DNA of 64,000 nt from the NCBI GenBank assembly GCA_964554805.1, contig CAZKPX010000002.1, positions 113,889-177,888 of the forward strand, given 5' to 3'. Positions within the stretch are counted from its first letter, which is position 1. Each line of letters begins with the position of its first letter. Shown here one piece after another: positions 27,474-40,563 of the stretch. Source of the stretch: an uncultured Candidatus Saccharibacteria bacterium. Its GTDB lineage: Bacteria > Patescibacteriota > CAZHWT01. The notes below the pieces were generated by a model. That model did no database searches and was not told the DNA's origin. It worked only from the letters and a program-made list of their open reading frames with translations. Both the position numbers and the translations under genes were made by a program.

Positions 27474-27867
27474 CCTGTCCGCCCACAGGGCGGAACCAGG
27501 GCAGGTTGGATGCGATGGTTGCGCGCCACCGCGCGCGATCTATATTACGCATGCAACTTACCATGCCACAGGGCGGAACCAGGCAGGTTGGATGCGATGG
27601 TTGCGCGCCACCGCGCGCGAATTTATACTACGCATGCAATCTGTCCGCCCAAGGGCGGAACCGGGCAGGTTGGATGCGATGGTTGCGCGCCGCCGCGCGC
27701 GATCTATATTGCGCATGCAACTTACCACGCCATAGGGCGGAACCAGGGCAGGTTGGATGCGATTATTGTTTGCCGCCGCAAACTATTGTTACTATTTTCC
27801 AGCTAAGGCTGGAAAACGCATGCAATCTATCATGCCGTTGGCGGAACTAGGGCGGGTGGGGTGTGAG
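27474..27867. repeat. Tandem array (about 4.7 copies) of an ~82-bp G+C-rich, hairpin-dense unit; the 4th copy carries an internal substitution/insertion
   Basis: Units ...gggcggaaccagggcaggttggatgcgatggttgcgcgccaccgcgcgcgatctatattacgcatgcaa... repeat head-to-tail; each has tccgccc/gggcgga and gcgcgc/gcgcgc hairpins. Confidence 0.85.
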
Positions 27868-28070: not shown

Positions 28071-28145
28071 TGGAGCGAGTGAGGGGACTTGAACCCCTGA
28101 CCTCTTCCTTGGCAAGGAAGCGCACTACCACTGTGCTACACTCGC
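28071..28145 (-). tRNA. tRNA-Gly (GCC), CCA encoded
   Basis: Manual fold: acceptor GCGAGTG/CACTCGC, D-stem GCAC/GTGC, anticodon loop TTGCCAA, T-arm AGGGG-TTCAAGT-CCCCT. Confidence 0.8.
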
Positions 28146-28160
28146 TTGATGTAAAGTTAT

Positions 28161-28236
28161 ATGGTGCCAAGGGTCGGTCTCGAACCGACGACACCGGGTT
28201 CTTCAGACCCGTGCTCTACCAACTGAGCTACCTTGG
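28161..28236 (-). tRNA. tRNA-Phe (GAA), CCA encoded
   Basis: Manual fold: GCCAAGGTAGCTCAGTTGGTAGAGC...CGGGT-CTGAAGA-ACCCG...GGTTCGAGACC... Confidence 0.85.
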
Positions 28237-28330
28237 CCAACAACTGGCTTGGCAGGGTGTAAGTTATAAGAGTGAGCTGTGGCGCTCATTTGGCTCTTAC
28301 CACTTACACGCTGCCAATCAGTTTTCAATT
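28237..28330. other. Long imperfect hairpin (about 66 nt; arms ggcagggtgtaagt...acttacacgctgcc) between tRNA genes
   Basis: Inverted-repeat arms read directly; does not fold as a tRNA. Confidence 0.3.
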
Positions 28331-28337
28331 TAAGAAC

Positions 28338-28480
28338 TATTTGGTGGAGCTAGAAGGACAACTCTCCGCCGGCTGGCGGATCGTGACGGTAGTGCCAGTT
28401 ATTAAAATCGATGTTTTAACAACTTCTTCCTACCTTCGACCTTAATCGCTGGCAGCGATAGGTTCTCGATATCTGGCTAC
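28338..28480 (-). other. tRNA 3'-half-like duplicate (…GTCCTTCTAGCTCCACCA) fused to a structured ~120-nt segment; 30-bp direct repeat with the tRNA-Val 3' flank
   Basis: ttaagaactatttggtggagc[t/c]agaaggac occurs at 28328-28357 and 28488-28517; no matching 5' acceptor strand, so it is not an intact tRNA. Confidence 0.35.
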
Positions 28481-28500
28481 ACAAAATAATTAAGAACTAT

Positions 28501-28576
<76 letters not shown>

Positions 28577-28654
28577 CAAATAATTATCTTTGCTAGATTA
28601 CCATATTCGATTGTTTTTGACCATACTGGTCTGTGCTTGATGTCTATGATACCG

Positions 28655-28799
28655 CGGTAGTTTTAATCTTCGGCTAAGGGCAGTACACATCGAAGAGAGC
28701 AATGTTCGCTTGGCTCTCGGACTATAGATGCCCCTTGGTGTTTAGGACCACCCTGTGTTACCAGGCGTACACAACCATCAAATGATAGTCACGTGCACC
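28655..28799. repeat. Degenerate third copy of the tRNA-Leu downstream repeat; lacks the 38-bp palindromic insert
   Basis: ...gttcgcttggctctcggactatagatgcccc...taccaggcgtacac... is alignable to 28935-29100 and 40091-40256 with substitutions. Confidence 0.5.
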
Positions 28800-28885
28800 T
28801 GGTGCCGAAGAGAGGATTTGAACCTCCACGCTTTTTACAGCACTACGACCTGAACGTAGCGTGTCTACCGTTCCACCACTTCGGC
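28800..28885 (-). tRNA. tRNA-Leu (CAG), long variable arm, CCA encoded
   Basis: GCCGAAGTGGTGGAACGGTAGACAC-CTACG-TTCAGGT-CGTAG-variable arm-GGAGGTTCAAATCCTCT-CTTCGGCACCA. Confidence 0.8.
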
Positions 28886-28920
28886 CCACATAGGTTTATC
28901 GATTGTTAACAATGCTAATC

Positions 28921-29100
28921 TTCTGGTGCCGAGGAAAGTAACGTTCGCTTTGCTCTCGGGCTATAGTCACCTTCTATTCGGCTCGTTGGCCGAATAGAAG
29001 GTGACTATAGATGCCCCTACAGCTTGAAGCTGTTGAAGGTTATTACCTGCCCTGACTACCAGGTGTATGTTACCCACCAAGTGAGTAAAATACACCTGGT
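28921..29100. repeat. Left copy of a 180-bp perfect direct repeat (begins tggtgccgaggaaag, mimicking a tRNA-Leu 3' end); contains a 22-bp-stem hairpin
   Basis: Identical by eye, base for base, to 40077-40256. Confidence 0.85.
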
Positions 29101-29196
29101 GCCCTAGATGACTCATCACCATTCGAACACTTTATGGAGTGGCTTAATAGTTTATACCAAGCTTTTCAAAGTGAGGATGATCACTAGAGTCTAAAT

Positions 29197-29406
29197 TCAC
29201 CGGGGTATTATATCATGAAAATCCAGATTCAGTGCATTTAGAATCTTGATGAAATTCTGAAGCGAAACATTAACTTCACCACGTTCAATAAGGGCGTAGG
29301 AGGACACGTTTATGCCCACTATTTGTGCTAACTGTGCTTGGCTAAGGTCTTTTGCCCTGCGGGCCGTTCTTATTTTTTGTCCAATTTCTTTAGCGGTGGC
29401 GTTCAT
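29197..29406 (-). CDS. XRE-family HTH transcriptional regulator (Cro/CI-like)
   Basis: IGQKIRTARRAKDLSQAQLAQIVGINVSSYALIERGEVNVSLQNFIKIL. Confidence 0.8.
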   Translation of the reverse strand: MNATAKEIGQKIRTARRAKDLSQAQLAQIVGINVSSYALIERGEVNVSLQNFIKILNALNLDFHDIIPR

Positions 29407-29462
29407 ATGCTTCGGATTATATCACAGAGACTCCAGAGCGACTGCAATTTATGGAGAGTGTC

Positions 29463-29750
29463 TCAAGGTAAATCCCTGCTATGCGCCTCTATCAGAATAT
29501 CCTCCAGTAAGAGTAATGACCACTGGACTCGGTTAGCCTGCAGGTGTGCATTTACTTCCTTGACCATTCCAGGAAAGCCTTTGTCATTGATCATTTTCTG
29601 AACCGTATCCGGGGAGAACTTGCCCTCCAGCATGTGGAACGTGGCGCGTACTTCAATTTTGTGGTCTGGATCATGGATATCAGACCACCTAAGGCCTTTT
29701 TCATCTGTGATATCCTCTGATGCCGATGCTTCTTGAGTGTCGATATTCAT
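29463..29750 (-). CDS. Hypothetical 95-aa protein immediately upstream of the XRE gene (possible toxin- or regulator-like partner)
   Basis: ORF only; co-oriented with the XRE gene, 56-bp gap. Confidence 0.35.
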   Translation of the reverse strand: MNIDTQEASASEDITDEKGLRWSDIHDPDHKIEVRATFHMLEGKFSPDTVQKMINDKGFPGMVKEVNAHLQANRVQWSLLLLEDILIEAHSRDLP

Positions 29751-29780
29751 ATGGTGGGATTATAACACAGGTCTTTTCAC

Positions 29781-30623
29781 TTAAAACTCTTGATAAAGAT
29801 CACTATCTTCCATCCAGTTTTGAGCACTTGTCTCTCCCCGAGTAGTAGTCCACCCGCTTGATTTTTGTGATGGGTAGCGGCTGGGTGGCACCTCACCATC
29901 ATATAGCCACATATCATCAGTCCCATCTTTGCCGCCCACAGCAAAGGTCCATCCTGAGGGAGTTGTACGCCAAGCGTACCAAGAACGGCCGTCTTGAGAT
30001 ACCTTAACAGTAGTGCTTGCTTCAAGTGGCTGATCTTTAACAGAGCCATTGAATAAAAGTATCGGATCATCTCTATATCCCGGCGGATGGCCGTTTCTAT
30101 AGTAGCCCCGTTGGGTAGAAAAAAGACGTATGAATAGTTGTTGTGTTCGCTTAAACTCTCTTTGGTCTAACTGCTTTCCGTCGCAATCTACCTCCTTAAC
30201 ATCAGCATACCTTTTTAGCCGCAGTGCTTGGGCTTTGGCTCTATGCTCAGTTTCTTGAACGCTTAAGCGAAACCGCCACATTACTTTTCGCGCTCCCATG
30301 AAAGTTCTTTCCTTCTGTATGTCTGTGTACCATGTCCCACTAAACGCGCTTGCATACCTTAAGCTACCATGTAGCCCTAGCACTACAGCTAATTTTACTG
30401 TGCATTTTATGCTACTTCCCTTCCTGGCTGTAGCTGAAAGCCCTTTTGAAACCACTTCAATCCTCATAGCTAGGCTGAGTATATAAATAAATGGGATAAG
30501 AGATAGTGGAAACCAGATAGACAGAATAAGAGGCGCAAGCACTCCTTCGCTGCCCTGACTAATCCATATTTCACGAAAATCGAGAGTTGTCTTGGTGAAC
30601 AAGATAGCCGTTACAATTATCAA
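29781..30623 (-). CDS. Hypothetical membrane-anchored protein (N-terminal 2 TM, C-terminal Gly/Trp/Thr-rich soluble domain); 4th gene of island operon
   Basis: 280 aa; ATGA start/stop overlap with the upstream gene. Confidence 0.45.
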   Translation of the reverse strand: MIIVTAILFTKTTLDFREIWISQGSEGVLAPLILSIWFPLSLIPFIYILSLAMRIEVVSKGLSATARKGSSIKCTVKLAVVLGLHGSLRYASAFSGTWYTDIQKERTFMGARKVMWRFRLSVQETEHRAKAQALRLKRYADVKEVDCDGKQLDQREFKRTQQLFIRLFSTQRGYYRNGHPPGYRDDPILLFNGSVKDQPLEASTTVKVSQDGRSWYAWRTTPSGWTFAVGGKDGTDDMWLYDGEVPPSRYPSQKSSGWTTTRGETSAQNWMEDSDLYQEF

Positions 30624-31105
30624 GACCGTCTGAAGAAAATTATAGTCGATTTTGGTGTTTCTTGCCGATGTGGCGCTATTGCCAGCATCACAACTGTGCA
30701 GATTAGAATCAGTTGAATTACTATTTCTGCCAGGATATTAAATGAACTTAGATTGACATAAAAGGCTAAAAATGCCGAGAGGCCAAGGGTATCTTTGAGC
30801 GTTTTTCTTGTTATGTCGCTGGACCTTCTGTTGGTGTGAGCGCTAAATACCATTCCCATGCCGATTAAAAGAACCATGACAAAGGTGTCCTTTAAAAGGC
30901 TTGTATCCCACCAGCCCTTTGCCCAGGCAAGCCATAAAAGAAGTCCTGCGTAGCACAGGTAAAAAGCAATTACAGAAAGAATCGGTTTGCTGCAGAACGT
31001 TTTCAGGATATCTGCAAAGCTTTTTCGTACCTCAGCTCGAAAAAAGGCGAAGGCCAGGAATGTACCTACTATGATCAATGTTGCGACTTCACGGTTTGTT
31101 AGCAT
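30620..31105 (-). CDS. Hypothetical 4-TM membrane protein; 3rd gene of island operon
   Basis: 161 aa; overlaps both neighbours (17 nt upstream, 4 nt downstream). Confidence 0.45.
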   Translation of the reverse strand: MLTNREVATLIIVGTFLAFAFFRAEVRKSFADILKTFCSKPILSVIAFYLCYAGLLLWLAWAKGWWDTSLLKDTFVMVLLIGMGMVFSAHTNRRSSDITRKTLKDTLGLSAFLAFYVNLSSFNILAEIVIQLILICTVVMLAIAPHRQETPKSTIIFFRRS

Positions 31106-32231
31106 GCGTTCTACCTTTAGACTTAACCAGCTTGAGAAGATCTTCCTCTATCTCATAGACTCTTAGCCTGCCTGTGAGTACACCTAGCCTGTAATTGACG
31201 CCTTCGCTCATCAGTTGCCAGTTGGTGTCCTTTAATTCTTGCTTTATCAGCCTTTCCAAATTCTTTGTACTCCTATATTTGTCTCTATCCGGTTCAGTGT
31301 CCCGGACTGAAAAAGCGGCAGCGCTATAGCGGTCATCGGTTGGGTTTTCAAGGCTGAATTTTGCATATCCCTTGGCTTCAGTGCGCTTAGTCAGCCTTCG
31401 CTCTACTTCGTGGACAGTAGGTTTTTGGATATTGGCGACGTTCTCATATAGGTCTTTGTTGTCTATGCGCTCTTTCATTTCGCGCATAAAGGAGGCCATC
31501 TGCAATGTCTGCTGCTTGGCTTTGAGGAACTCTTGGCCTTGTTTATCGTCAAAGCAGAACAGGACCTTATCTTTTTCAAAGTCTGGATCAGGCACTTTTT
31601 CAGGTTCTTCCTTTAGGTCTAAAACATCTTGGTAGCCATGCTCACAGCTTGAACAAGTATAGGTAGTAATAATACGGCCATCTTCCCGCTTATTAGAGTC
31701 TTCCATGACCTGACTACAGACTGGACAAGACGCTTTAGGTTTCTCCCATAATATGCCGTCATGCCACACAGCCGTTCGCTTACTGCAATCAAGGCAGTCA
31801 AAAAGAAAGACGACCTCTTCCTTTCTCTCTGGCCTAGGGACTAAATCCTTGGAAATAAGCTGAAGATTGTGTGAGCGGCAGTGCTTGCAAGGAGATGACT
31901 TTTTAAGCTGAGCAGACTCAACCTCGTTATCTCTAGCCCTATCTTGCTCCATCCACTCATCTATTGTTGCTTGGCGCTCTTCCCAGCGTTCACCAGCCAC
32001 CCACTCAGTAGCAAACCAATAGTGCAAGCTAAATACTTTGCGAAGCTCAAACTCCGGGTCTTCAATCTCTGGATCTACTTTAGAGAGGTCGTTTTGCTTT
32101 AATTTATTGCACGCCTCAATAATCGTTGCTTCACTTCTGCGACACTTTTCTACAGTAAACCGATCGTATAGGTCTTGGTAATAGGAGGCGTCTTTAAGGT
32201 AGCGCGGTACTGTTTTATTCTTCTGAGTCAT
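31089..32231 (-). CDS. Hypothetical charged protein with two CxxC...CxxC zinc-ribbon modules; 2nd gene of island operon
   Basis: CKHC-(27)-CLDC and CPVC-(19)-CSSC motifs; 380 aa; 17-nt overlaps with neighbours. Confidence 0.45.
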   Translation of the reverse strand: MTQKNKTVPRYLKDASYYQDLYDRFTVEKCRRSEATIIEACNKLKQNDLSKVDPEIEDPEFELRKVFSLHYWFATEWVAGERWEERQATIDEWMEQDRARDNEVESAQLKKSSPCKHCRSHNLQLISKDLVPRPERKEEVVFLFDCLDCSKRTAVWHDGILWEKPKASCPVCSQVMEDSNKREDGRIITTYTCSSCEHGYQDVLDLKEEPEKVPDPDFEKDKVLFCFDDKQGQEFLKAKQQTLQMASFMREMKERIDNKDLYENVANIQKPTVHEVERRLTKRTEAKGYAKFSLENPTDDRYSAAAFSVRDTEPDRDKYRSTKNLERLIKQELKDTNWQLMSEGVNYRLGVLTGRLRVYEIEEDLLKLVKSKGRTHANKP

Positions 32232-33012
32232 TCATCTTATCAACCGCCTGGTTAAACTCGTTAACCAGTTGATTTAATTTGGCCTCATAATCTAAGTCCA
32301 ACTCATCATGGACTATACTTAAGATTAAGTGCATATAATCAAAGGCTATAATTAAACTTTCACTTACCCAATTGTCACTTTCTCCAGCATCAACGAAAAA
32401 GCCATCTTCAGACTCTTTGTAGTAGTTGCTAAAAGACAATGAATCTGAGTGGGTTAAACCTGAAAGCATGGGATACATAGTATCGTAAAAATGTTGTCGC
32501 CCAATAGTCCTGGCCATCTCCCATAGTTTTTTATCAGACCAGCCGAATGCATTATAGTCTTGTCGCCCAAGTATCTCATCTGCAGCAGCATGAATCTCTG
32601 CTACTATTGACTGCCCTGGCCTTGGATTTTCTTCCCTTCTCTTTAACTCTTCAAGAAGCGATTCATGTTTCTCAGCATGCTTGATACTTTGCGAAGCTTT
32701 GACAGGGGCATATTCTATAAATCTAGTTAGCAAGTCATCAGTCTTATCGTTAAAAATGTATTTCATCACCACTGCAAGCTCAAATAGAGATCGTGAAATA
32801 ATTGCAGCATCTTCTCCATTGCCATTGGCGCACAGAGACATGATCGCTATGTGAGACTTAGAGGCCTTAGCTAGCGCAATAGCGGCCACTAACGACCTCC
32901 GGGTGCTCTCGCTCTGCCCGTTGGTCATAATCTCTTCTACTATCTCGTGCATTCTTAAGTGCAGCGAATAAAGCTTTTCGTTTGGATCAGAAGGCGATAT
33001 CTCAATTGGCAT
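32215..33012 (-). CDS. Hypothetical soluble protein with an R-x5-H (HEPN-like) motif; 1st gene of island operon
   Basis: 265 aa; ...EMARTIGRQHFYD... contains R-x5-H; own 5' region of about 260 bp. Confidence 0.4.
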   Translation of the reverse strand: MPIEISPSDPNEKLYSLHLRMHEIVEEIMTNGQSESTRRSLVAAIALAKASKSHIAIMSLCANGNGEDAAIISRSLFELAVVMKYIFNDKTDDLLTRFIEYAPVKASQSIKHAEKHESLLEELKRREENPRPGQSIVAEIHAAADEILGRQDYNAFGWSDKKLWEMARTIGRQHFYDTMYPMLSGLTHSDSLSFSNYYKESEDGFFVDAGESDNWVSESLIIAFDYMHLILSIVHDELDLDYEAKLNQLVNEFNQAVDKMNDSEE

Positions 33013-33273
33013 TTTGTTGTTCTGCGCTTTCAGTACTAGTAACTATTTCCGGGATATAACCATAATATTGTTCGTCATCTCTTCGATTAAACCTGAGGTT
33101 TATGACAAATTCTTCTGGCTTTAGCAAAGAACTCGAATACAAGTTAAATGTTAGCTGGTATAATCCTTTGTCATTTATTGGAATCGTGTAGAGACTTTGT
33201 CCAAATACAAGATCATCGTTGTTGGTTTTGAACTTATATTCTCCCTTAGATATAATTCGAATGTGGCTAGAGG

Positions 33274-33900
33274 CTAAGTGCAGGGTATTATTCTGAGATA
33301 CGCTAAAAAACCAACATCCTCGCCTGAGGGTTTTTCCTTGTAGTTGTGAGGATACCTCTTGAGCAAGTATTCATCTCGCTCTTTTTGGATTGTTTTTGTC
33401 TGCCTTGAGAATATAGAAATAAATACGGGATAACTCGCATCCCGGATGGGCAGGAAATCATGTGCTGTGTTTTTCTCGTAATTGGATATTATGACAGGGG
33501 ATTGAAGTAGGTTCTTCCCTATCGAGTTCGAAAATTTCTCCAACCTTAATTCCGCATTAGGTAATACATCACCAGCAACGGCAATATTTATGGTTAATAA
33601 ATTCCCTTCAATTTGGCCTAACGGGAATTTTTCACCTAGTCCTTCTTCCGCAGCTTTCTCGTGTTGGCTATCGTATCCAATTACCCTAACCCACCAGAAG
33701 TAATCCCAACCAAGCTTTGATTCAATCTTGTCTATGCTGGCCACGAAGATTACTTTTGGCCGAGAAAACCTTTTTCTAAATACATCTGCTTTAAAACCTA
33801 CCCAAAAACCAGTAAGGGCAAGGAATACTGGTACAAAAATTTGCAATCCTGCTACGAGGTAATCAAATCCATCTGGAATAATATTTACATCAATTAACAT
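33274..33900 (-). CDS. Hypothetical protein with N-terminal TM segment
   Basis: 208-aa ORF upstream of the operon. Confidence 0.4.
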   Translation of the reverse strand: MLIDVNIIPDGFDYLVAGLQIFVPVFLALTGFWVGFKADVFRKRFSRPKVIFVASIDKIESKLGWDYFWWVRVIGYDSQHEKAAEEGLGEKFPLGQIEGNLLTINIAVAGDVLPNAELRLEKFSNSIGKNLLQSPVIISNYEKNTAHDFLPIRDASYPVFISIFSRQTKTIQKERDEYLLKRYPHNYKEKPSGEDVGFLAYLRIIPCT

Positions 33901-34213
33901 TTAGTTGGCTTCCACCTTCCCAGAGAATCATTTGTTTTGTCATAGACATAAATGCTTGCAATCTCGCCCTTTGACATTATTAATTAAATACTAATTATTT
34001 TTGCTAAAGATGCGCTTGGATCATTTTATTACCTATCTCTGTACACTCTGTATATAGGATATCATATTGGTCGTCAGAAAGAGACCTAACAACGTCTCTG
34101 CCTATTCTTCATCCATTTTTTATATGAGGAGCAAGCGACAACCCTGTAACATCTCTGAGTTTGTGCCTGCTTGATATTATCAGGTATACTGGAATCTGCA
34201 GAGAACTTTTCGC

Positions 34214-37200
34214 GTGCTGTGCACAACCTCTTTACTTGACCGCATGATTAAAAAACTCGTTGTCTTTACTCTAGCAACTACTGCACTGCTCCTAACTATC
34301 ACCTTCTGGCCAGGCAACAATCTGGTCAAGGACTTCTTTGGCTTCAATCAGCAAGCCAACCCTCAGGATGTGACGGGGGGGCAATTTGATGCCAAACAGC
34401 CTTTAGACGCTACTACTCTGCTCGGTCAAGATGGTCTTTACTACCTTCAAGCAGGCAATCTGGTTGGCACCATCGCCACTGACCGTTTCTCAGCCTATGA
34501 TGACCTGATCGACGAGGGACGCATCCCTGCAAACTCCCGCCTGCTTACTGATCAAGACTTACCACTATCCACTCCCCCAGCTCCTCAGTCTGTTCTGCAA
34601 ACCCAGCCCAACACGCCCAATCTACCCAATCAATCCAGCCTTCAAACCCTGTCATCCTCTACTCTCAACTTAACCCTTCACCATGGCACTCTCACCGGCT
34701 CAGTTATCCAAAATGGCCTCCAAACCAGCCTGATAACCAATGACGCTGGTTTCCTAACTTCTCTACTTAACTTCACCACCGACGACCTGACTCAAGGCAG
34801 CACTAACCGCTACACTCAGTGGCAAACGGTCTTAGGTGGTATTTCCTATACTCAATCCGTTACTATTAGTGGCAATGTAACTTTAACTCAATTCACCTCT
34901 CCCTCTGGTCTCCTCTACACTACCAACACTGGTCTTGTCTCTCAGCTTCCCCTCGGCACCTCTGGCCAGTGCCTCCAGTCCGACACTACTGCTCTGGTTT
35001 GGGGATCGTGCGCTACTGGCACGCTAACTGGCACCGGAACCACGGGACAATTGGCCCTTTTTAGTAGTTCCAGCAGTTTGAGCGGCAGCAATGGCTTGGT
35101 CTGGAATGTCCTAGATGGAGCTTTTGAAATTGACGGTGATGTGGATGTAACTGGCGGCTTCTTGGTGGACGGCAACCCGTTGAGTACGACTCATGTGATT
35201 GAAGGGACTAATCTTTACTGGACCAATGGCCGATTTGATACCCGCTTCGGTACTGCCTTTGGCCCGGCCTTTGATAGCGCCTTTGGTGGCAAGACAACTA
35301 ATGACCTGACTGAGGGCGGTAGCGCTTTGTATTGGACTAATAATCGGTTTGATCTGCGTCTGGCCACTAAGGATACTGATGACTTGACTGAAGGCGAAGA
35401 CAACTTGTACTTTACTCAGCTGCGGGTGTCGGCTAATGCTGATGTAGCCGCTAACACTGCCGCCCGGCATGCGGAGGCGACCGTAGGAGATACGGGAACC
35501 CTGGATCTAACTATTGTGGGACAACACATCACAGGTACAGTTATTCAGTCGGGCATTCAGACGACCTTGATTACCAACGACGCGGCCTTTATTTCTAATC
35601 TAACTGACTTTGATACGGATAACCTAGGTGAGGGAGATGTAAATTTGTATTGGACTAATGATCGGTTCGATACCCGCTTCGGCACCGCCTTCAGTTCGGC
35701 CTTTGGTTCAGCTTTTGACAGCGCTTTCGGTGGCAAGAATACTGATGATCTGGATGAGGGTGAAACGAATCTTTATAGTCAATGGGCCTACAATTCGACT
35801 GCCATTACTTTCGGTGACAGTGTCGGTATTGGGGCTTCATCGGCACCGACAGCTACCTTGGATGTGACGGGTACTTTCAGGGTTAGTGGGGCAGTGACTT
35901 TGGCTAACTACACTACCAACGGTGGTATTTTGTACACCAATGGGTCAGGAGCCTTGTCTCAGCTAGGAGTTGGATCTTCCGGGCAATGTCTGGTGTCGAC
36001 CGGCGGTGTGCCGACTTGGGGGTCGTGCGCTGAGGCGGGAACCATTACTGGCTCTGGCACTGCAGGGCAGTTAACCTTCTTTAGCAGTGGGGACACTATT
36101 ACGGGTAGCGCAGCCTTGGTTTGGGATGGGGTGGAGGAGGCATTGGCCATTGGTGGGGATGTGGATGTGACCGGGGTTATTTCAGGTGATGGATCGGGGT
36201 TGACCGATTTGAGCGGTACAGCCATTACTTCAGGAACGATTCTTAATGCTTGGTTAGTTAACTCCGGCGCTCTGACGGTTAGCGCCGGTACTGGCTTGAG
36301 TGGTGGTGGCAGCACGGCACTGGGTGGGTCGACTACTATTAACTTGGCCAACACGGCAGTTGAAGCTGGTTCGTATGGTTCAGCTACCCATGTAGCCCAC
36401 TTTACGGTTGATGCTCAGGGTCGGTTGACGGCTGCTGGTACCACGGCTATTGCCATCGCCGGTGAAGCTATTTCTTCCGGCACTGTGGCTAATGCTCGGT
36501 TAGTTAATGGCGGTGCTTTGAGCGTTAGTGCCGGTACCGGTTTATCTGGCGGTGGTAGTGTGGCTTTGGGTGGGTCAACAACCATTGATTTGGCTAATAC
36601 GGCAGTTGATGCCGATGACTATGGTTCTGCCTCACAAGTGACCACCTTTACCGTTGATGCCCAAGGCCGATTGACGGCGGCTAACAGCGTCAATATTTCT
36701 ATTAATGCCTCAGCCATTAGCGCTGGTACTGTGGCTATTAACCGCGGCGGCACTAACTCAACTGCTACCCCAACCGCTGGCGGGATTGCTTACGGTACCG
36801 GTAGCGCTTATGCCTTTACTGCGGTTGGCACGGAAGGTCAGTGTTTGATGTCTGATGGTAGCAGTGCTCCAACCTGGGGAACTTGCGGCGAGGCTTTGCC
36901 GTCAGATAACCTTACTGGTTCAGGTGCCAATGGCCAACTGGCCTTCTTTGACGGCACTCACACCCAAACCTCCTCTGCCAGTCTGACTTGGAACGGTTCT
37001 CTGTTGAGTATCACTGGCGGGCTTAGTGTCTCTGGTAGTATCACTTTTGCTAACTTTGCTACAAACTACGGCTTGCTCTACACCAACGCCTCTGGTTTGC
37101 TTCATCAACTAACAACTGGATCGGCGGGTCAATGTCTCAAATCGGGAGTTGGCGGGTCGCTCCTTTGGGATGACTGTGGCGGCGGTGGCCTAGCCGGCGG

Positions 37201-38164
37201 TAGCAATCCTGGAGACATGATCTACTGGAGTGGTAGTGCCTGGGTGCAGCTGGCTGCTGGCCTCGATGGTCAGTCAATGGTCTTTTGTCAGGGCCAGCCT
37301 CGATGGGGCGGGGCTATTCCTGTACTTACCACCAAAGCTGGTACTAATACTACTTGGGAGCAAACAGAGACCGGTGGTATTATCAGCGACAATGGTTGTG
37401 CTGAGATTATTGAGCGGGGAGTGGTTTTCTCTACCTCTCCTAATCCCACCTTGGCTAACGGCGTATCTGTCTCCTCCGACACCACTGATAATTTTGATGT
37501 AGTGGCTCATCCCTTGCCCTCGGATACCACTGTCTACATCCGCGCCTATGCTACCAACGCTGGCGGTACTGGATACGGTAACCAGATCACCGTCAATACT
37601 CCTGAACCTCCGGCCTTTAGTATTGGTGATCCTGGTCCGGCTGGGGGAGTTATCTTCTATGTTAAGCCTAGTTACTCTGACGGTTGGCGCTACCTAGAGG
37701 CTGCCACCGCCGATTACGGCTCCCCTACCACCGTCCAATGGGGTTGTCGTGGCACCTCAGTCCCTGGTTCTGGAGGTACGGCCATTGGCACAGGTAAAGC
37801 CAATACTCTCGCTATTGTGGCTTTCCATGACAATCCAGCCAACTTTGGTGGCAATAATTACTACTCCTTTGGTGGTGATTATGGAACCATAGGTTGTAAC
37901 TCGGCCAACAACGGGGTCGTAGCTGCCAAGCTAGCGACGCAGTTTGTTCAAAACGGCTATGACGACTGGTTCTTGCCTAGCTCAGGTGAACTCAATGAAC
38001 TGTATGACCAGCAAGCAACCGTCGGTGGCTTCGGCGCTACCGATTACTGGAGTAGTTCGGAGTACACGGTGACTACCGCCCGCTACCAGAAGTTCTTTAG
38101 TGGTAACGAGAATGGCGGTAGTAAGAGCAATAGCCTCCGGGTCAGGTTCGTCAGGGCTTTTTAG
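34214..38164 (+). CDS. Giant secreted/surface repeat protein with phage-tail-fibre-like repeats and a C-terminal DUF1566 (Lcl C-terminal)-like domain; putative adhesin
   Basis: 1316 aa; N-terminal signal/TM; 4x [TDDLTEG..NLYWTNxRFDxR..AFDSAFGGK], 4x [SGQCLxS....WGSC], 2x [LVNGGALSVSAGTGLSGGGS...FTVDAQGRLTAA]; C-terminus ...GWRYLEAA...DDWFLPSSGELNELY...DYWSSSEY...SLRVRFVRAF. Confidence 0.7.
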   Translation: MLCTTSLLDRMIKKLVVFTLATTALLLTITFWPGNNLVKDFFGFNQQANPQDVTGGQFDAKQPLDATTLLGQDGLYYLQAGNLVGTIATDRFSAYDDLIDEGRIPANSRLLTDQDLPLSTPPAPQSVLQTQPNTPNLPNQSSLQTLSSSTLNLTLHHGTLTGSVIQNGLQTSLITNDAGFLTSLLNFTTDDLTQGSTNRYTQWQTVLGGISYTQSVTISGNVTLTQFTSPSGLLYTTNTGLVSQLPLGTSGQCLQSDTTALVWGSCATGTLTGTGTTGQLALFSSSSSLSGSNGLVWNVLDGAFEIDGDVDVTGGFLVDGNPLSTTHVIEGTNLYWTNGRFDTRFGTAFGPAFDSAFGGKTTNDLTEGGSALYWTNNRFDLRLATKDTDDLTEGEDNLYFTQLRVSANADVAANTAARHAEATVGDTGTLDLTIVGQHITGTVIQSGIQTTLITNDAAFISNLTDFDTDNLGEGDVNLYWTNDRFDTRFGTAFSSAFGSAFDSAFGGKNTDDLDEGETNLYSQWAYNSTAITFGDSVGIGASSAPTATLDVTGTFRVSGAVTLANYTTNGGILYTNGSGALSQLGVGSSGQCLVSTGGVPTWGSCAEAGTITGSGTAGQLTFFSSGDTITGSAALVWDGVEEALAIGGDVDVTGVISGDGSGLTDLSGTAITSGTILNAWLVNSGALTVSAGTGLSGGGSTALGGSTTINLANTAVEAGSYGSATHVAHFTVDAQGRLTAAGTTAIAIAGEAISSGTVANARLVNGGALSVSAGTGLSGGGSVALGGSTTIDLANTAVDADDYGSASQVTTFTVDAQGRLTAANSVNISINASAISAGTVAINRGGTNSTATPTAGGIAYGTGSAYAFTAVGTEGQCLMSDGSSAPTWGTCGEALPSDNLTGSGANGQLAFFDGTHTQTSSASLTWNGSLLSITGGLSVSGSITFANFATNYGLLYTNASGLLHQLTTGSAGQCLKSGVGGSLLWDDCGGGGLAGGSNPGDMIYWSGSAWVQLAAGLDGQSMVFCQGQPRWGGAIPVLTTKAGTNTTWEQTETGGIISDNGCAEIIERGVVFSTSPNPTLANGVSVSSDTTDNFDVVAHPLPSDTTVYIRAYATNAGGTGYGNQITVNTPEPPAFSIGDPGPAGGVIFYVKPSYSDGWRYLEAATADYGSPTTVQWGCRGTSVPGSGGTAIGTGKANTLAIVAFHDNPANFGGNNYYSFGGDYGTIGCNSANNGVVAAKLATQFVQNGYDDWFLPSSGELNELYDQQATVGGFGATDYWSSSEYTVTTARYQKFFSGNENGGSKSNSLRVRFVRAF

Positions 38165-38204
38165 CTATTTATCTATTTAACTATTTAAACGAAAAAATTT
38201 GACT

Positions 38205-38549
38205 ATGGCCCTTTATTACGATCTTCCTGTTTTCCGTGATACCTACCAACTTTCCCTTCTCATTTTTTCCTACACTCAAGAATTTCCCAGAGAATATAAA
38301 TTCACCCTCGGTCAAGACATGAAGCGAGACACCATTCAGCTGATGCGCAGCATCTACCGGGCCAATAAAACTAAAGACAAAACCGAGTATCTCAACGACT
38401 TTTTGGACGACTTTGAGCTGCTTAAGCTCCAAATTCGCCTAGCTACTGATCTTAAAATCTTGCCGGTAAAGAATCAGGCCCAGCTGGCGCTTCACTTGGA
38501 ATCCATCGGCAAGCAGGTCACCGCCTGGCGCAACGCTGCGACCCACTAG
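38205..38549 (+). CDS. Four-helix-bundle protein (Avd / 23S-rRNA-IVS-protein-like)
   Basis: About 114 aa, predicted all-helical; MALYYDLPVFRDTYQLSLLIF... resembles the TIGR02436 family. Confidence 0.45.
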   Translation: MALYYDLPVFRDTYQLSLLIFSYTQEFPREYKFTLGQDMKRDTIQLMRSIYRANKTKDKTEYLNDFLDDFELLKLQIRLATDLKILPVKNQAQLALHLESIGKQVTAWRNAATH

Positions 38550-38685
38550 TCACCCCTTTTCCTTTGCTTGGTTGATGGGATATACTGAAGTAGCCAGAAT
38601 CTGCTGGGTCATGGCCTAGTAGAGTGAGCGTTCGTATTAGTCTAAAAGCGGCATAGGGACTGTCCCTCGTCATGCCTTTTAAAGG

Positions 38686-40119
38686 TTGGACGAATCAGTT
38701 GATTCTGATTGTATATTTAGGGAAGAAGGACGCTCAGCCAAGACAATTGCTGGTCGGCCGAAGCTGCTTGATTTACTCAATTACTGCCGGAAGAATAAGA
38801 AGATTATTGATAGTGTTATTGTTTATCGCTTGGATCGCATCTCCAGACAAACGGCAGACTATCTCACAATTAGAACTAAATTAGCCGAGAGCGGTATTAA
38901 TCTCATATCTGCCACCGAGCCGACAGGTAACAGCCCTGCTGAAAAGATGATTGAGACAATCTTGGCCAGCTTTGCTCAGTTGGATAATGACGTAAAGAGC
39001 GAGCGGTCTAAAAACGGCCTTCAGGCTCGCTTCAAAGCTGGCTTGAAGTCTTCTTCTGTGCCGATTGGATACCTGGCTAAAAATGGTTTTGCCATCAAAG
39101 ACCCTGATACTTTTGAATATATAAAGCATGGTTGGGAAATGTTAGCCACAGGTAAAGACAGTCTGCAGGATGTGATGCACTATCTTAATGAGAATGGTGT
39201 TCGGATGCGGCAAAAAGGTAAAGCAAACCTCATCAGCAAGCAATCTGTGTCAAGAATCTACAGAAACAAATTTTACTGCGGCATATTGGTATCTAAAAAG
39301 TATGGCATGGAAGTTAGCGGGCAGCATCAGCCGATGATCAATGAAAGTATGTTTTATGCGGTGCAGGCCATGATAGATAATCGCGGTCCAAATAGGTCAG
39401 GACACAAGCTTAGATATATTCTGGATCACCCTGAATTCCCCTTGCGGCGCTTTATGATGTGCGGTATATGCGATAAGCCTATGACAGGTGGATTTAGCAA
39501 GGGTAAAAACCAGCGATATGGCTATTATTTCTGCGCTAATCGTTGTGGTGCACCATCATCAATCAATATAAACAATATGGAAGTGTCGGTTATAAGTAAT
39601 CTCAAAGACCTTGAACCAACCGCTCGGTTGTTTGAGAAGGTTTCAAAAAGCCTGCGCCAAAAATACATCTCACGAATGGGCAAATTTCAAACAGCGGCTC
39701 AGGACAAGGTAGCAGTCATTGAAGCAGTTAAAGAAACACGACAATCACTTATCGAAAAGAACCTAGCTGGTTTATATTCTGATGAGTTATTCAGGGAGCA
39801 ACTAGCGGTTCTAGACCAAAAACTAGCTGATGCGTACGCGGCACAATCACGAGCCAATCTGGCAAATTACAATTATGAGGTGTTATTTAAGTTTATAGAA
39901 GAAAAATTGGCACATATTGCCAAGACATACGAGGAATCAACGCTATCTCAGAAAAAAGCATTGCTGTGTTCGATATTCCCTTCTGGTATGCGCTGGATGT
40001 ACCCAGGCATTTCGAACACTGAGATTTCACCGTGGTATCAAGTAATTCAAGGTGTTAATAAGCTTGATGTCACACTTGGTGCCGAGGAAAGTAACGTTCG
40101 CTTTGCTCTCGGGCTATAG
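38686..40119 (+). CDS. Large serine recombinase (resolvase/recombinase domain + zinc-ribbon); N-terminal catalytic motif missing or degraded
   Basis: ...IFREEGRSAKTIAGRPKLLDLL...VIVYRLDRISRQ... (resolvase core), recombinase domain, C..C...C..C ribbon, coiled-coil tail; called ORF begins with TTG; upstream frames carry only a corrupted RVS-like remnant with stop and frameshift. Confidence 0.7.
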   Translation: MDESVDSDCIFREEGRSAKTIAGRPKLLDLLNYCRKNKKIIDSVIVYRLDRISRQTADYLTIRTKLAESGINLISATEPTGNSPAEKMIETILASFAQLDNDVKSERSKNGLQARFKAGLKSSSVPIGYLAKNGFAIKDPDTFEYIKHGWEMLATGKDSLQDVMHYLNENGVRMRQKGKANLISKQSVSRIYRNKFYCGILVSKKYGMEVSGQHQPMINESMFYAVQAMIDNRGPNRSGHKLRYILDHPEFPLRRFMMCGICDKPMTGGFSKGKNQRYGYYFCANRCGAPSSININNMEVSVISNLKDLEPTARLFEKVSKSLRQKYISRMGKFQTAAQDKVAVIEAVKETRQSLIEKNLAGLYSDELFREQLAVLDQKLADAYAAQSRANLANYNYEVLFKFIEEKLAHIAKTYEESTLSQKKALLCSIFPSGMRWMYPGISNTEISPWYQVIQGVNKLDVTLGAEESNVRFALGL

Positions 40120-40256
40120 TCACCTTCTATTCGGCTCGTTGGCCGAATAGAAGGTGACTATAGATGCCCCTACAGCTTGAAGCTGTTGAAGGTTATTACC
40201 TGCCCTGACTACCAGGTGTATGTTACCCACCAAGTGAGTAAAATACACCTGGTGCC
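40077..40256. repeat. Right copy of the 180-bp direct repeat; overlaps the recombinase 3' end and abuts tRNA-Leu(GAG)
   Basis: Identical to 28921-29100. Confidence 0.85.
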
Positions 40257-40335
40257 GAGGAAAGGAGTTGAACCTTCACGCTTTTTACGGCACTACCACC
40301 TCAAGGTAGCGTGTCTACCATTCCACCACCTCGGC
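40250..40335 (-). tRNA. tRNA-Leu (GAG), long variable arm, CCA encoded
   Basis: GCCGAGGTGGTGGAATGGTAGACAC-CTACC-TTGAGGT-GGTAG-variable arm-GAAGGTTCAACTCCTTT-CCTCGGCACCA. Confidence 0.8.
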
Positions 40336-40345
40336 TTATGTAATT

Positions 40346-40422
40346 GTAAAAATACTGGTCGGGGTAAGAGGACTTGAACCTCTGACCTCACGCTCCCAAA
40401 GCGCGCGCTCTAGCCAACTGAG
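40346..40422 (-). tRNA. tRNA-Pro (TGG), CCA encoded
   Basis: CGGGGTGTAGCTCAGTTGGCTAGAGC-CGCGC-TTTGGGA-GCGTG...AGAGGTTCAAGTCCTCT-TACCCCGACCA. Confidence 0.8.
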
Positions 40423-40563
40423 CTACACCCCGTAAATTAAATCAAAACTTAAAAGTCAAGATTCAAAAATTATCATAGAACTAATCTGGGATATGCATGA
40501 TTTTTAACTAATGGATTATAGCACAATCTTGCCTGTTAGCAAAGATAGCTTAGGTGAGCAAGC

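Follow-up and report, generated by a model that had tools for sequence, protein, structure and literature searches.

We analysed a 64-kb stretch of contig CAZKPX010000002.1 (the window, by which we mean this stretch at its full length), in which an island of accessory genes ending in a serine recombinase gene lies within a cluster of tRNA genes and is bracketed by two copies of a 180-nt repeat (Table 1). The island shows two features of tRNA-targeting islands, an intact tRNA 3′ end on one side, belonging to tRNA-Leu(GAG), and a copy of that tRNA end at the far boundary. Throughout, S denotes the repeat unit, A, s and B its parts, m the segment A+s, and L-numbers (for example L033) related loci; tRNAs in these loci were called by ARAGORN.

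A repeat search of the window against itself, followed by direct comparison of the two copies, recovered a single 180-nt family whose two members are 100% identical, with identity stopping at both ends of both copies. A perfect pair of 180-mers within 64 kb is far beyond chance. A preliminary description of this DNA had already reported the pair, placing the left copy at 28921-29100 and the right at 40077-40256; the identity holds, and the left copy in fact lies 3 nt further on. It had also read the start of each repeat as a mimic of the tRNA-Leu(GAG) 3′ end and the close as tggtgcc, which both the sequence and the tRNA calls bear out. Each repeat consists of A (TGGTGCCGAGGAAAG, 15 nt), s (158 bp) and B (TGGTGCC, 7 nt). 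In plus-strand reading A equals the final 15 nt of tRNA-Leu(GAG), and the B of the right copy, its last 7 nt, is the genuine 3′ end of that gene. Copies of the tRNA end thus stand at 28924, 40077 and 40250 (15 nt) and at 29097 and 40250 (7 nt), and the layout reads tRNA-Leu(CAG), 38 bp, A-s-B, island, recombinase end, A-s, then A with the tRNA body. The 38-bp spacer has no similarity to the sequence preceding the right repeat.

Table 1. Features of the island, its repeats and the surrounding tRNA genes (window coordinates).
Feature	Coordinates	Strand	Details
tRNA-Gly	28071-28145	minus	
tRNA-Phe	28162-28237	minus	
tRNA-Val	28502-28577	minus	
S′, degenerate repeat copy	28683-28799	minus	Coordinates approximate (best alignment); directly downstream of tRNA-Leu(CAG)
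tRNA-Leu(CAG)	28800-28885	minus	
38-bp spacer "a"	28886-28923		Between tRNA-Leu(CAG) and left repeat; host side of left junction
Left repeat	28924-29103		A 28924-28938, module AACGTTCGCTTTGCTCTCGG, palindrome 28961-29010, ~86 bp, B 29097-29103
Left end of island proper (attL-type)	29097-29187	plus	TGGTGCC, then P′-type half-site GGTG-N-TTCGAACA (29098-29129)
XRE-family helix-turn-helix regulator, 69 aa	29197-29406	minus	Pfam HTH_3 E=1.3e-13; first gene inside left end
Cargo, six co-directional open reading frames (ORFs)	29463-33900	minus	95 aa, 280 aa (transmembrane, TM), 161 aa (TM), 380 aa, 265 aa, 208 aa (TM)
Target gene of a diversity-generating retroelement (DGR), 1316 aa	34214-38164	plus	N-terminal membrane anchor, repeats, C-terminal Lcl_C/DUF1566 (aa 1240-1314)
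bAvd, DGR accessory protein	38199-38549	plus	Pfam bAvd E=4e-20; phrog_3206 "Avd protein of DGR" E=2e-22
Remnant of spacer between avd and template repeat (38593-38664), then putative deletion junction (~38665-38698)	38593-38698	plus	
Large serine recombinase (LSR), 5′-truncated, 477 aa	38686-40119	plus	Homologues mostly 505-560 aa
Right repeat	40077-40256		Recombinase end + A + module form an attP-like junction; last 7 nt = tRNA-Leu(GAG) 3′ end
tRNA-Leu(GAG), intact target gene	40250-40335	minus	ARAGORN and Rfam, 54 bits
tRNA-Pro(TGG)	40356-40432	minus	Upstream of tRNA-Leu(GAG), same strand

The recombinase gene at the right end of the island carries, C-terminal to its catalytic domain, the recombinase domain (PF07508, E=2e-14) and the zinc-ribbon (PF13408, E=7e-5; 23.5 bits, just under the cut-off of 25.3) that characterise an LSR, and it matches the integrase family phrog_95 with E=6e-70. 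As the preliminary description had pointed out, its last 14 codons and stop lie inside the right repeat, the ORF ending 43 nt within it, and an independent Logan contig (L011, equivalent to 37706-40256) confirms this recombinase-to-repeat junction. The other end of the gene is missing. The Pfam Resolvase match begins at profile position 34 of 145, and some 42-45 N-terminal residues are absent, the catalytic serine among them; a YLRVSTEEQ stretch is present in all eight aligned homologues. Stop codons occur in all three frames upstream of 38686, and tblastn with the N-termini of the eight homologues found nothing elsewhere in the 64-kb window. Where a tRNA-targeting island would have a functional integrase, this one has a truncated gene, and the N-terminal part of the resolvase catalytic domain with its serine nucleophile, present in the homologues, is not found in the window copy. 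The window recombinase is a truncated LSR family member whose sequence predicts it to be catalytically dead; because the catalytic serine is gone, the island should be unable to move itself.

Upstream of the recombinase lie two genes that had been described as an adhesin or tail-fibre gene and an Avd-like protein as such. We find that together they are instead the stump of a DGR, without template repeat (TR) or reverse transcriptase (RT). The 1316-aa protein matches Pfam Lcl_C (E=1.8e-8) and phrog_4245 (E=2.4e-21), and its Lcl_C/DUF1566 domain is the expected place of a variable region (VR). The Avd gene adjoins this target in the gene order of the intact DGR of L093, whose Avd is 73% identical to that of the window, within a family that is ~70% conserved across phyla. 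Positions 38154-38186, comprising the 3′ end of the target and the sequence just downstream, are 94% identical to the end of the L093 VR region. The canonical cassette of L093 runs target-avd-TR-RT, with TR and VR 84% identical over 140 nt. The window shares with it the Lcl_C/DUF1566 target followed by bAvd and the conserved VR-end sequence, and differs in that TR and RT are gone from the whole 64 kb: at a word size of 7 the window holds no second copy of 37800-38200, none of its ORFs encodes an RT, and the L093 RT matches 10 related loci by tblastn but not the window. Unless another part of the genome supplies the missing parts in trans, the DGR of the window is, as its gene content would predict, a non-functional stump.

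The relatives suggest how this state arose. At least 10 of the 82 family loci carry RT genes (L014, L018, L020, L037, L042, L046, L056, L057, L063 and L086), all within 10 kb upstream of the recombinase and often with Avd-like genes; in L014, L018, L063 and L086 the distance is ~0.5 kb. It seems that islands of this kind repeatedly carry DGRs. Because the RT sits just upstream of the recombinase in relatives, and the window is without TR, RT and the recombinase 5′ end alike, a single deletion of ~2 kb would account for all three losses. It would have joined the avd-TR spacer to about codon 45 of the recombinase at ~38665-38698, taking with it TR, RT, the catalytic serine and ~135 nt of the recombinase 5′ end, after which neither self-excision nor target diversification would be possible in cis. 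The target gene also contains internal repeats, one pair of 223 nt at 36214-36682 (246-nt spacing, 73% identical) and another of 87 nt at 35230-35760, and Logan contigs of the same samples break within the gene at 37254 and 37706.

The repressor-like XRE gene stands at the other extremity of the island; an XRE gene also adjoins the left end of the sister island L099, and the window protein had no exact record in the protein look-up. Among the cargo proteins, the 380-aa product is a Zn-ribbon protein belonging to a family of 27 proteins, mostly from Patescibacteria, with a homologue in L099 that is 70% identical, and the 265-aa product is a DUF5677 protein. A PADLOC search for defence systems returned only a weak match (DUF5677/PDC-S52, E=0.004). 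Pfam and PHROGs thus uphold the gene content given earlier (XRE regulator, co-directional cluster, 1316-aa protein, Avd and serine recombinase). The description of the island as shifted in G+C stands in part: its mean is 0.461 against 0.450 in the flanks, and the composition is a mosaic rather than uniform, with the 1316-aa gene (0.523) and 33013-34213 (0.379) both falling beyond the range of 2-kb flank windows (0.391-0.496). Likewise, of the proposal of an integrative element or a decayed prophage, the accessory DNA at the 3′ end of a tRNA-Leu remains, whereas the island is not a prophage: the PHROGs scan of island ORFs yielded a regulator, an integrase, Avd and one unknown family, and no phage structural, packaging or lysis genes.

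The recombinase proved to be one of a large family. We identified 828 homologues at E<=1e-10, with ~50% identity, and those with a source name are for the most part labelled Patescibacteria or Saccharibacteria. Across 82 related loci (L009-L091), 68 have a convergent tRNA that starts within a few nucleotides of the end of the recombinase match, and these tRNAs represent 23 species; most of the remaining 14 loci are contig ends, and many contigs stop at the recombinase-tRNA junction. The C-termini of the homologues read like antisense tRNAs. The junction consensus is GTCnCnnT/TGGTG (the slash marking the junction), with which the window sequence gatgtcacact/TGGTGCC agrees. Family member P0005 matches the structures 3BVP, 4KIS/6DNW and 9DXH, the C-terminal domain of the A118/LI integrase and SprA being among them. 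Elsewhere in the family the cargo includes BREX and restriction genes (L009) and TraG and relaxase genes (L010). Just one close match was found among 2.9 million viral contigs (IMG/VR), as against more than 431 matches in metagenome contigs. A gene flanking the window island has its closest relatives, at ~30%, in metagenome-assembled genomes of the Moranbacteria type, and because these are so distant we take the host to be an unsampled lineage resembling the candidate phyla radiation (CPR). A pattern search for S in metagenome contigs gave no match, and a literature search found no paper on a tRNA-targeting serine-integrase family in Patescibacteria or CPR. The window island is therefore a decayed member of a large and apparently undescribed family of tRNA-targeting islands; the window copy is itself ordinary, and the features of interest are those of the family.

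To see where the island itself begins and ends, the left ends of relatives are informative. In loci whose recombinase has no adjoining tRNA (L021, L035, L069 and others), the gene is followed by TGGTGnC...TTCGAACAC, with the ORF running on as ...FG....FEH... Outside real tRNAs, 968 kb contain six occurrences of the pattern GGTG-N-TTCGAAC[AC], each in the orientation of the recombinase. Two mark recombinase ends, two more lie in L035, one is at position 542 of L033, and one is at 29098 in the window, immediately after the left repeat. Read in the recombinase frame, the window half-site gives PGALDDSSPFEHFMEWLNSLYQAFQSEDDH followed by a stop. The L033 half-site lies 9.27 kb upstream of the L033 recombinase-tRNA-Gly junction. 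Directly before it, at L033:479-570, ~75 nt of a recombinase 3′ end survive as a remnant (E=6e-7). In L035 (982-13571, within a 616-kb chromosomal contig), the single recombinase is surrounded by an array of three to four sites of the form TTGGTG...TTCGAACACC, three of them counted as P′ sites; L033 and L035 both have the look of tandem accretion. The left end of L099 consists of host trailer, TGGTGAC, the same half-site, an XRE gene and a Zn-ribbon gene. This left-end architecture is the same in L021, L033, L035 and L099. In L033 and L099, the two relatives with both ends mapped, just 8-9 bp are common to the two ends.

Because the family's left-end motif starts right after the left repeat, the island junctions of the window are the two TGGTGCC heptamers that start at 29097 and 40077. 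The island proper thus extends over ~10.98 kb, from one heptamer to the other, and its right end is formed, as in relatives, by the 3′ end of the recombinase gene; its left boundary lies within 29097-29104 and its right boundary within 40076-40083, and TGGTGCC is the only sequence common to both ends. The 180 bp of the repeat do not constitute the att core. L099 (11600-11923) and L100, which come from the same samples, have the left-end module in common with the window, with 74% nucleotide identity in the Zn-ribbon gene; their remaining cargo differs and includes an Eco57I-type restriction enzyme and an HATPase_c protein, which suggests modular exchange of cargo.

The spacing of the motif points to how the family might choose its sites. 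TCGAAC lies at +19 from TGG in tRNAs and at +24 in five of the six element sites. Since TTCGAACAC shows no synonymous variation across the element sites, it appears to be constrained at the DNA level. For serine integrases it is an established rule that a motif common to both sites lies 5 bp more outward in attP than in attB (PMC3783163). Because the 5-bp shift matches this rule, the T-loop would be the zinc-ribbon motif and the crossover would lie in TGGTG(C). On this model, the family recombinase would exchange strands within or beside the terminal TGGTG of the tRNA, and its zinc-ribbon would read the universal T-loop sequence TTCGAA there and the same motif 5 bp outward in the element site. 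Comparison of the ends of L021, L035 and L099 shows, in addition, that the tail of the recombinase is antisense tRNA in the integrated form; in the excised (attP) form of the window island, the ORF would gain a tail of ~25-30 aa (..FEHFMEW..) from the other end of the element (29104-29187). An integration-dependent change of the recombinase C-terminus is possible.

If the island ends at the heptamers, the long repeats need another origin. We would describe them as two copies of a 173-bp mini-segment, m (a 15-nt copy of the tRNA end plus 158 bp), followed by the shared heptamer. In L045, at the same offset, the recombinase end is followed by a ~20-nt mimic of a different tRNA and then by GTTCGCACGGCTCTCGG; the junction of recombinase end, tRNA mimic and GTTCGCnnnGCTCTCGG is common to L045 and the window and occurs nowhere else. 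Because the combination of recombinase end, tRNA mimic and module recurs in L045, the module AACGTTCGCTTTGCTCTCGG is taken to be element-type DNA. By analogy, the 15-mer adjoining it would behave like the short repeat of the ssrA islands of Dehalococcoides. The most fitting reading of the mini-segment is that of a remnant with att-like ends on both sides, S′ being an older case beside the sister tRNA.

Two further ideas on the nature of m were tried and given up. Its alignment to tRNA-Leu beyond the 15-mer is borderline (23 of 500 shuffles), which does not support a pseudo-tRNA, and Rfam finds just the six real tRNAs in the window. An anchored "P.YQV" 13 codons ahead of TGGTGCC raised the idea that m is the decayed 3′ end of a recombinase, which was dropped. 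Within s lies a perfect 50-bp palindrome with 22-bp arms and a 6-nt loop (28961-29010 and 40114-40163), of which the window has no other copy. It constitutes a 44-bp insertion flanked by CTATAG, missing from S′, and may be a small hairpin-type insertion. The repeat folds very stably (z = -10), a stability that comes chiefly from the tRNA and the 22-bp arms of the palindrome; a structured RNA was rejected, since on hand inspection S and S′ have no common pairing register and the palindrome has no T-run.

S′ itself documents earlier activity at the cluster. The preliminary description had recognised a third, degenerate copy near tRNA-Leu(CAG) and proposed repeated events at this tRNA locus. Once the 44-bp palindrome is taken out of S, 38 of 45 nt in the first block are identical between S and S′, a value equalled in none of 500 shuffles, which establishes the copy and supports the repeated events. 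S′ opens with CGAAGAGAG, the 3′ end of tRNA-Leu(CAG) and not of tRNA-Leu(GAG), and two positions that differ between S and S′ covary with the cognate tRNA. The cluster is a hot spot of integration. What resembles another integration scar is a direct repeat of 30 bp (28330-28359 and 28490-28519, 160-bp spacing; 29 of 30 nt identical), whose second copy spans the tRNA-Val 3′ end and 12 nt of trailer; the insert has no homology to S.

How the order host-m-island-m-tRNA came about can be narrowed by its junctions. Integration at the tRNA of a spacer-m-tRNA host would reproduce the left junction but not the right, and integration at the left 15-mer the right but not the left. Three routes would yield both: (a) a composite circle of island and m entering a spacer-m-tRNA chromosome, via the recombinase at the tRNA or via RecA within m; (b) a composite duplicated in tandem, from which the second copy of the island was then precisely excised; or (c) entry of the island into an existing m-m tandem. 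We prefer (a) or (b) because arrays and remnants occur in L033, L035 and L045 and the same behaviour is documented at ssrA (PMC3146451). Tandem accretion is the most likely source of the host-m-island-m-tRNA order. Taken together, the window probably holds a defective LSR-type island at the 3′ end of tRNA-Leu(GAG), decayed by deletion, with repeats that arose by tandem accretion and not by att duplication. Today the single cis route to loss of the island would be homologous recombination between the repeats.

The accretion origin of the repeats is the least certain step of this account, and several observations weigh against the account as a whole. All recombinase-based paths to the present order need at least two events or a non-canonical pairing of sites. 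A decayed recombinase end in the 3′ half of the mini-segment found no support in a protein profile search, in nhmmer with a DNA profile built from 67 sequences or in tests by shuffling, and the GTC motif of the family is missing there. TCGAAC is spaced at +27 in the window, against +24 in the family. On the side of the DGR, 38593-38664 matches the L093 spacer before TR only weakly (69% over 72 nt, E=0.008). Recency and mobility would both be read from the identity of the repeats and from nothing else. Finally, the window comes from a metagenome assembly, in which only the recombinase-to-repeat junction, out of four, is independently confirmed.

That last point feeds the strongest competing explanation, which we regard as improbable though not negligible: a loop in the assembly graph, in which a chromosome with spacer-m-tRNA and no island, and a separate 11,153-bp circle with one repeat copy (an excised or episomal form), were threaded once into a single path. 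All four assembled junctions (28923/28924, 29103/29104, 40076/40077 and 40256/40257), and hence their k-mers, would be the same under both interpretations. The source is a metagenome, the same proteins being found by exact look-up only in the NCBI and Logan assemblies of samples SRR16798008/9; Logan contig L011 ends exactly at the repeat end, a branch point of the graph; and the recombinase end with A and module is attP-like, as comparison with L045 indicates. However, the 11,153-bp unit contains no replication gene recognisable by Pfam or PHROGs, standing circles would need a trans-acting enzyme or RecA given the dead recombinase, and a non-replicating circle is expected to be too rare for full-length assembly. 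Logan contigs also break at the unrelated positions 29361, 37254 and 37706, which makes contig ends weak evidence, and we set them aside as evidence on junctions. Other states of the locus would show other junctions: recombinase end-TGGTGCC-CTAGATG for a circular island, spacer-TGGTGCCGAGGAAAG-GAGTTGAACC for a scar-free empty site, recombinase end-A-GAGTTGAACC for a simple attR, and s-end-A-TAACGTTCGC for an m-m tandem.

Less likely again, in our estimate, is the model of the preliminary description, a single integration in which attP shared 180 bp with the host tRNA trailer and the repeats are attL and attR. It draws on the facts that perfect direct repeats enclose all the accessory genes, that the repeat contains the tRNA 3′ end and that the recombinase gene extends into one copy. 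Serine integrases, however, exchange strands at a 2-bp core and have no need of long identity (PMC3783163). Within the upstream sequence available for 50 relatives, at most 10 kb each, the tRNA end was not repeated beyond what chance would give, the best matches reaching at most 12-15 nt, and the two mapped left ends have only the 8-9 bp noted above in common with the right end. The model also leaves unexplained why the copy of the tRNA is 15 nt long at the start of the repeat and 7 nt at its end. The start of the family left-end motif directly past the repeat, the recurrence of recombinase end plus module in L045, and the presence of a homologous mini-segment on its own at tRNA-Leu(CAG) all argue against it.

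We give least credence to a native origin, in which S-type sequence is the tandemly duplicated trailer of the host tRNA-Leu genes and the island entered at a pseudo-tRNA end between the copies: both Leu tRNAs do have homologous S-type sequence with the same join (..cacc/TGGTGCC), and insertion at the middle 15-mer of spacer-A-s-A-s-A-tRNA would give both junctions in a single recombinase event, but the 5′ 9-15 nt of S and S′ copy their own tRNA at two diagnostic positions, as fits scars but not an inherited trailer, the module recurs beside a recombinase end in the unrelated L045, no tandem S-S array was observed, and the two copies of S are identical while S′ is ~30% diverged.

Around the island, a promoter scan placed the best promoter-like site of the region upstream of tRNA-Pro (40542-40515, minus strand; TTGCTA-16-TATAAT with TG). 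Should all six tRNA genes belong to a single operon, the island has put 11 kb between Pro and Leu(GAG) on one side and Leu(CAG), Val, Phe and Gly on the other. Positions 27483-27860, which have an SBP_bac_3 gene to one side and the tRNA cluster to the other, hold ~4.5 tandem copies of an 82-bp unit (CAGGGCGGAACCAGGGCAGGTTGGATGCGATGG...), and a Logan contig breaks within this array.

At the level of the family, we put forward the following picture tentatively, as one that may fall short on some of its parts. A Patescibacterial family would use the universal acceptor and T-loop end of tRNAs as attB, with TTCGAA as its zinc-ribbon motif, 5 bp further out in attP. Such recognition would explain how enzymes with only ~50% identity came to be retargeted to 23 or more tRNA species. 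The C-terminal ~25-30 residues of the enzyme would be swapped on integration, DGRs would often lie beside the recombinase, and 173-bp mini-segments would act as non-autonomous partners or landing pads, duplicated by accretion.

For the source genome, the island would amount to 11 kb of dead cargo splitting a tRNA operon, together with an orphan DGR target, and neither mobility nor hypervariation should be assumed for it. The targeting of tRNA genes is a classic habit of tyrosine integrases, and judging from the window a large serine-integrase family does likewise by way of the conserved tRNA end. Enzymes of this family could serve genome engineering, as tRNA-like landing sites are present in every genome. 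In CPR biology, these islands would be a main route by which such ultra-small bacteria gain DGRs as well as genes for defence and conjugation. Annotators should note that an island may owe the long perfect repeats at its sides to the accretion of mini-remnants rather than to att sites, which matters for automated delimitation.

Phage-type large serine integrases usually target protein-coding genes. Compared with members such as A118/LI, TP901-1 and SPbeta SprA (Rutherford et al. 2013, PMC3783163), the family of the window has the same resolvase, recombinase and zinc-ribbon domains and the same use of one DNA motif in element and host half-sites with a 5-bp offset (PMC3783163); it differs in being nearly absent from viral contigs and in having an attP that overlaps the region of its own stop codon. 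In the accretion of cis-mobilizable elements (CIMEs) and integrative and conjugative elements (ICEs) in streptococci, a concept cited in PMC3146451 and PMC5704250, a recombinase-less, att-bounded remnant likewise lies beside an incoming element, and this remnant can be duplicated or moved when the composite excises and integrates again. The streptococcal systems differ in using tyrosine integrases with identity-dependent crossover, and the window remnant differs in measuring only 173 bp and having no transfer functions.

The closest analogue is the set of ssrA islands of Dehalococcoides, with the serine recombinase DsiB (McMurdie et al. 2011, PMC3146451). The likeness drawn here is one of architecture, and there are differences: the host there is a member of the Chloroflexi and the cargo reductive dehalogenases, whereas here they are Patescibacteria and a DGR; the target there is a single tmRNA gene, whereas the family of the window uses at least 23 ordinary tRNA species; and the integration module with the small partner recombinase DsiA, ParB and Mom was not seen in a Pfam scan of the window island ORFs. 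The ssrA islands are described as having 20-bp repeats, an overlap with the recombinase 3′ end, tandem islands and cis-mobilizable remnants (PMC3146451). In both systems an LSR gene stands at the island end with its 3′ end overlapping a structured-RNA gene or repeat, and the RNA 3′ end recurs as a short direct repeat, of 20 bp in Dehalococcoides and of 15 and 7 bp in the window. Insertion occurs in or near the T-loop and acceptor end, and a conserved element motif lies beside the repeat. Both are read as undergoing tandem accretion, with recombinase-less remnants that appear cis-mobilizable, and in both the C-terminus of the recombinase varies with the state of integration.

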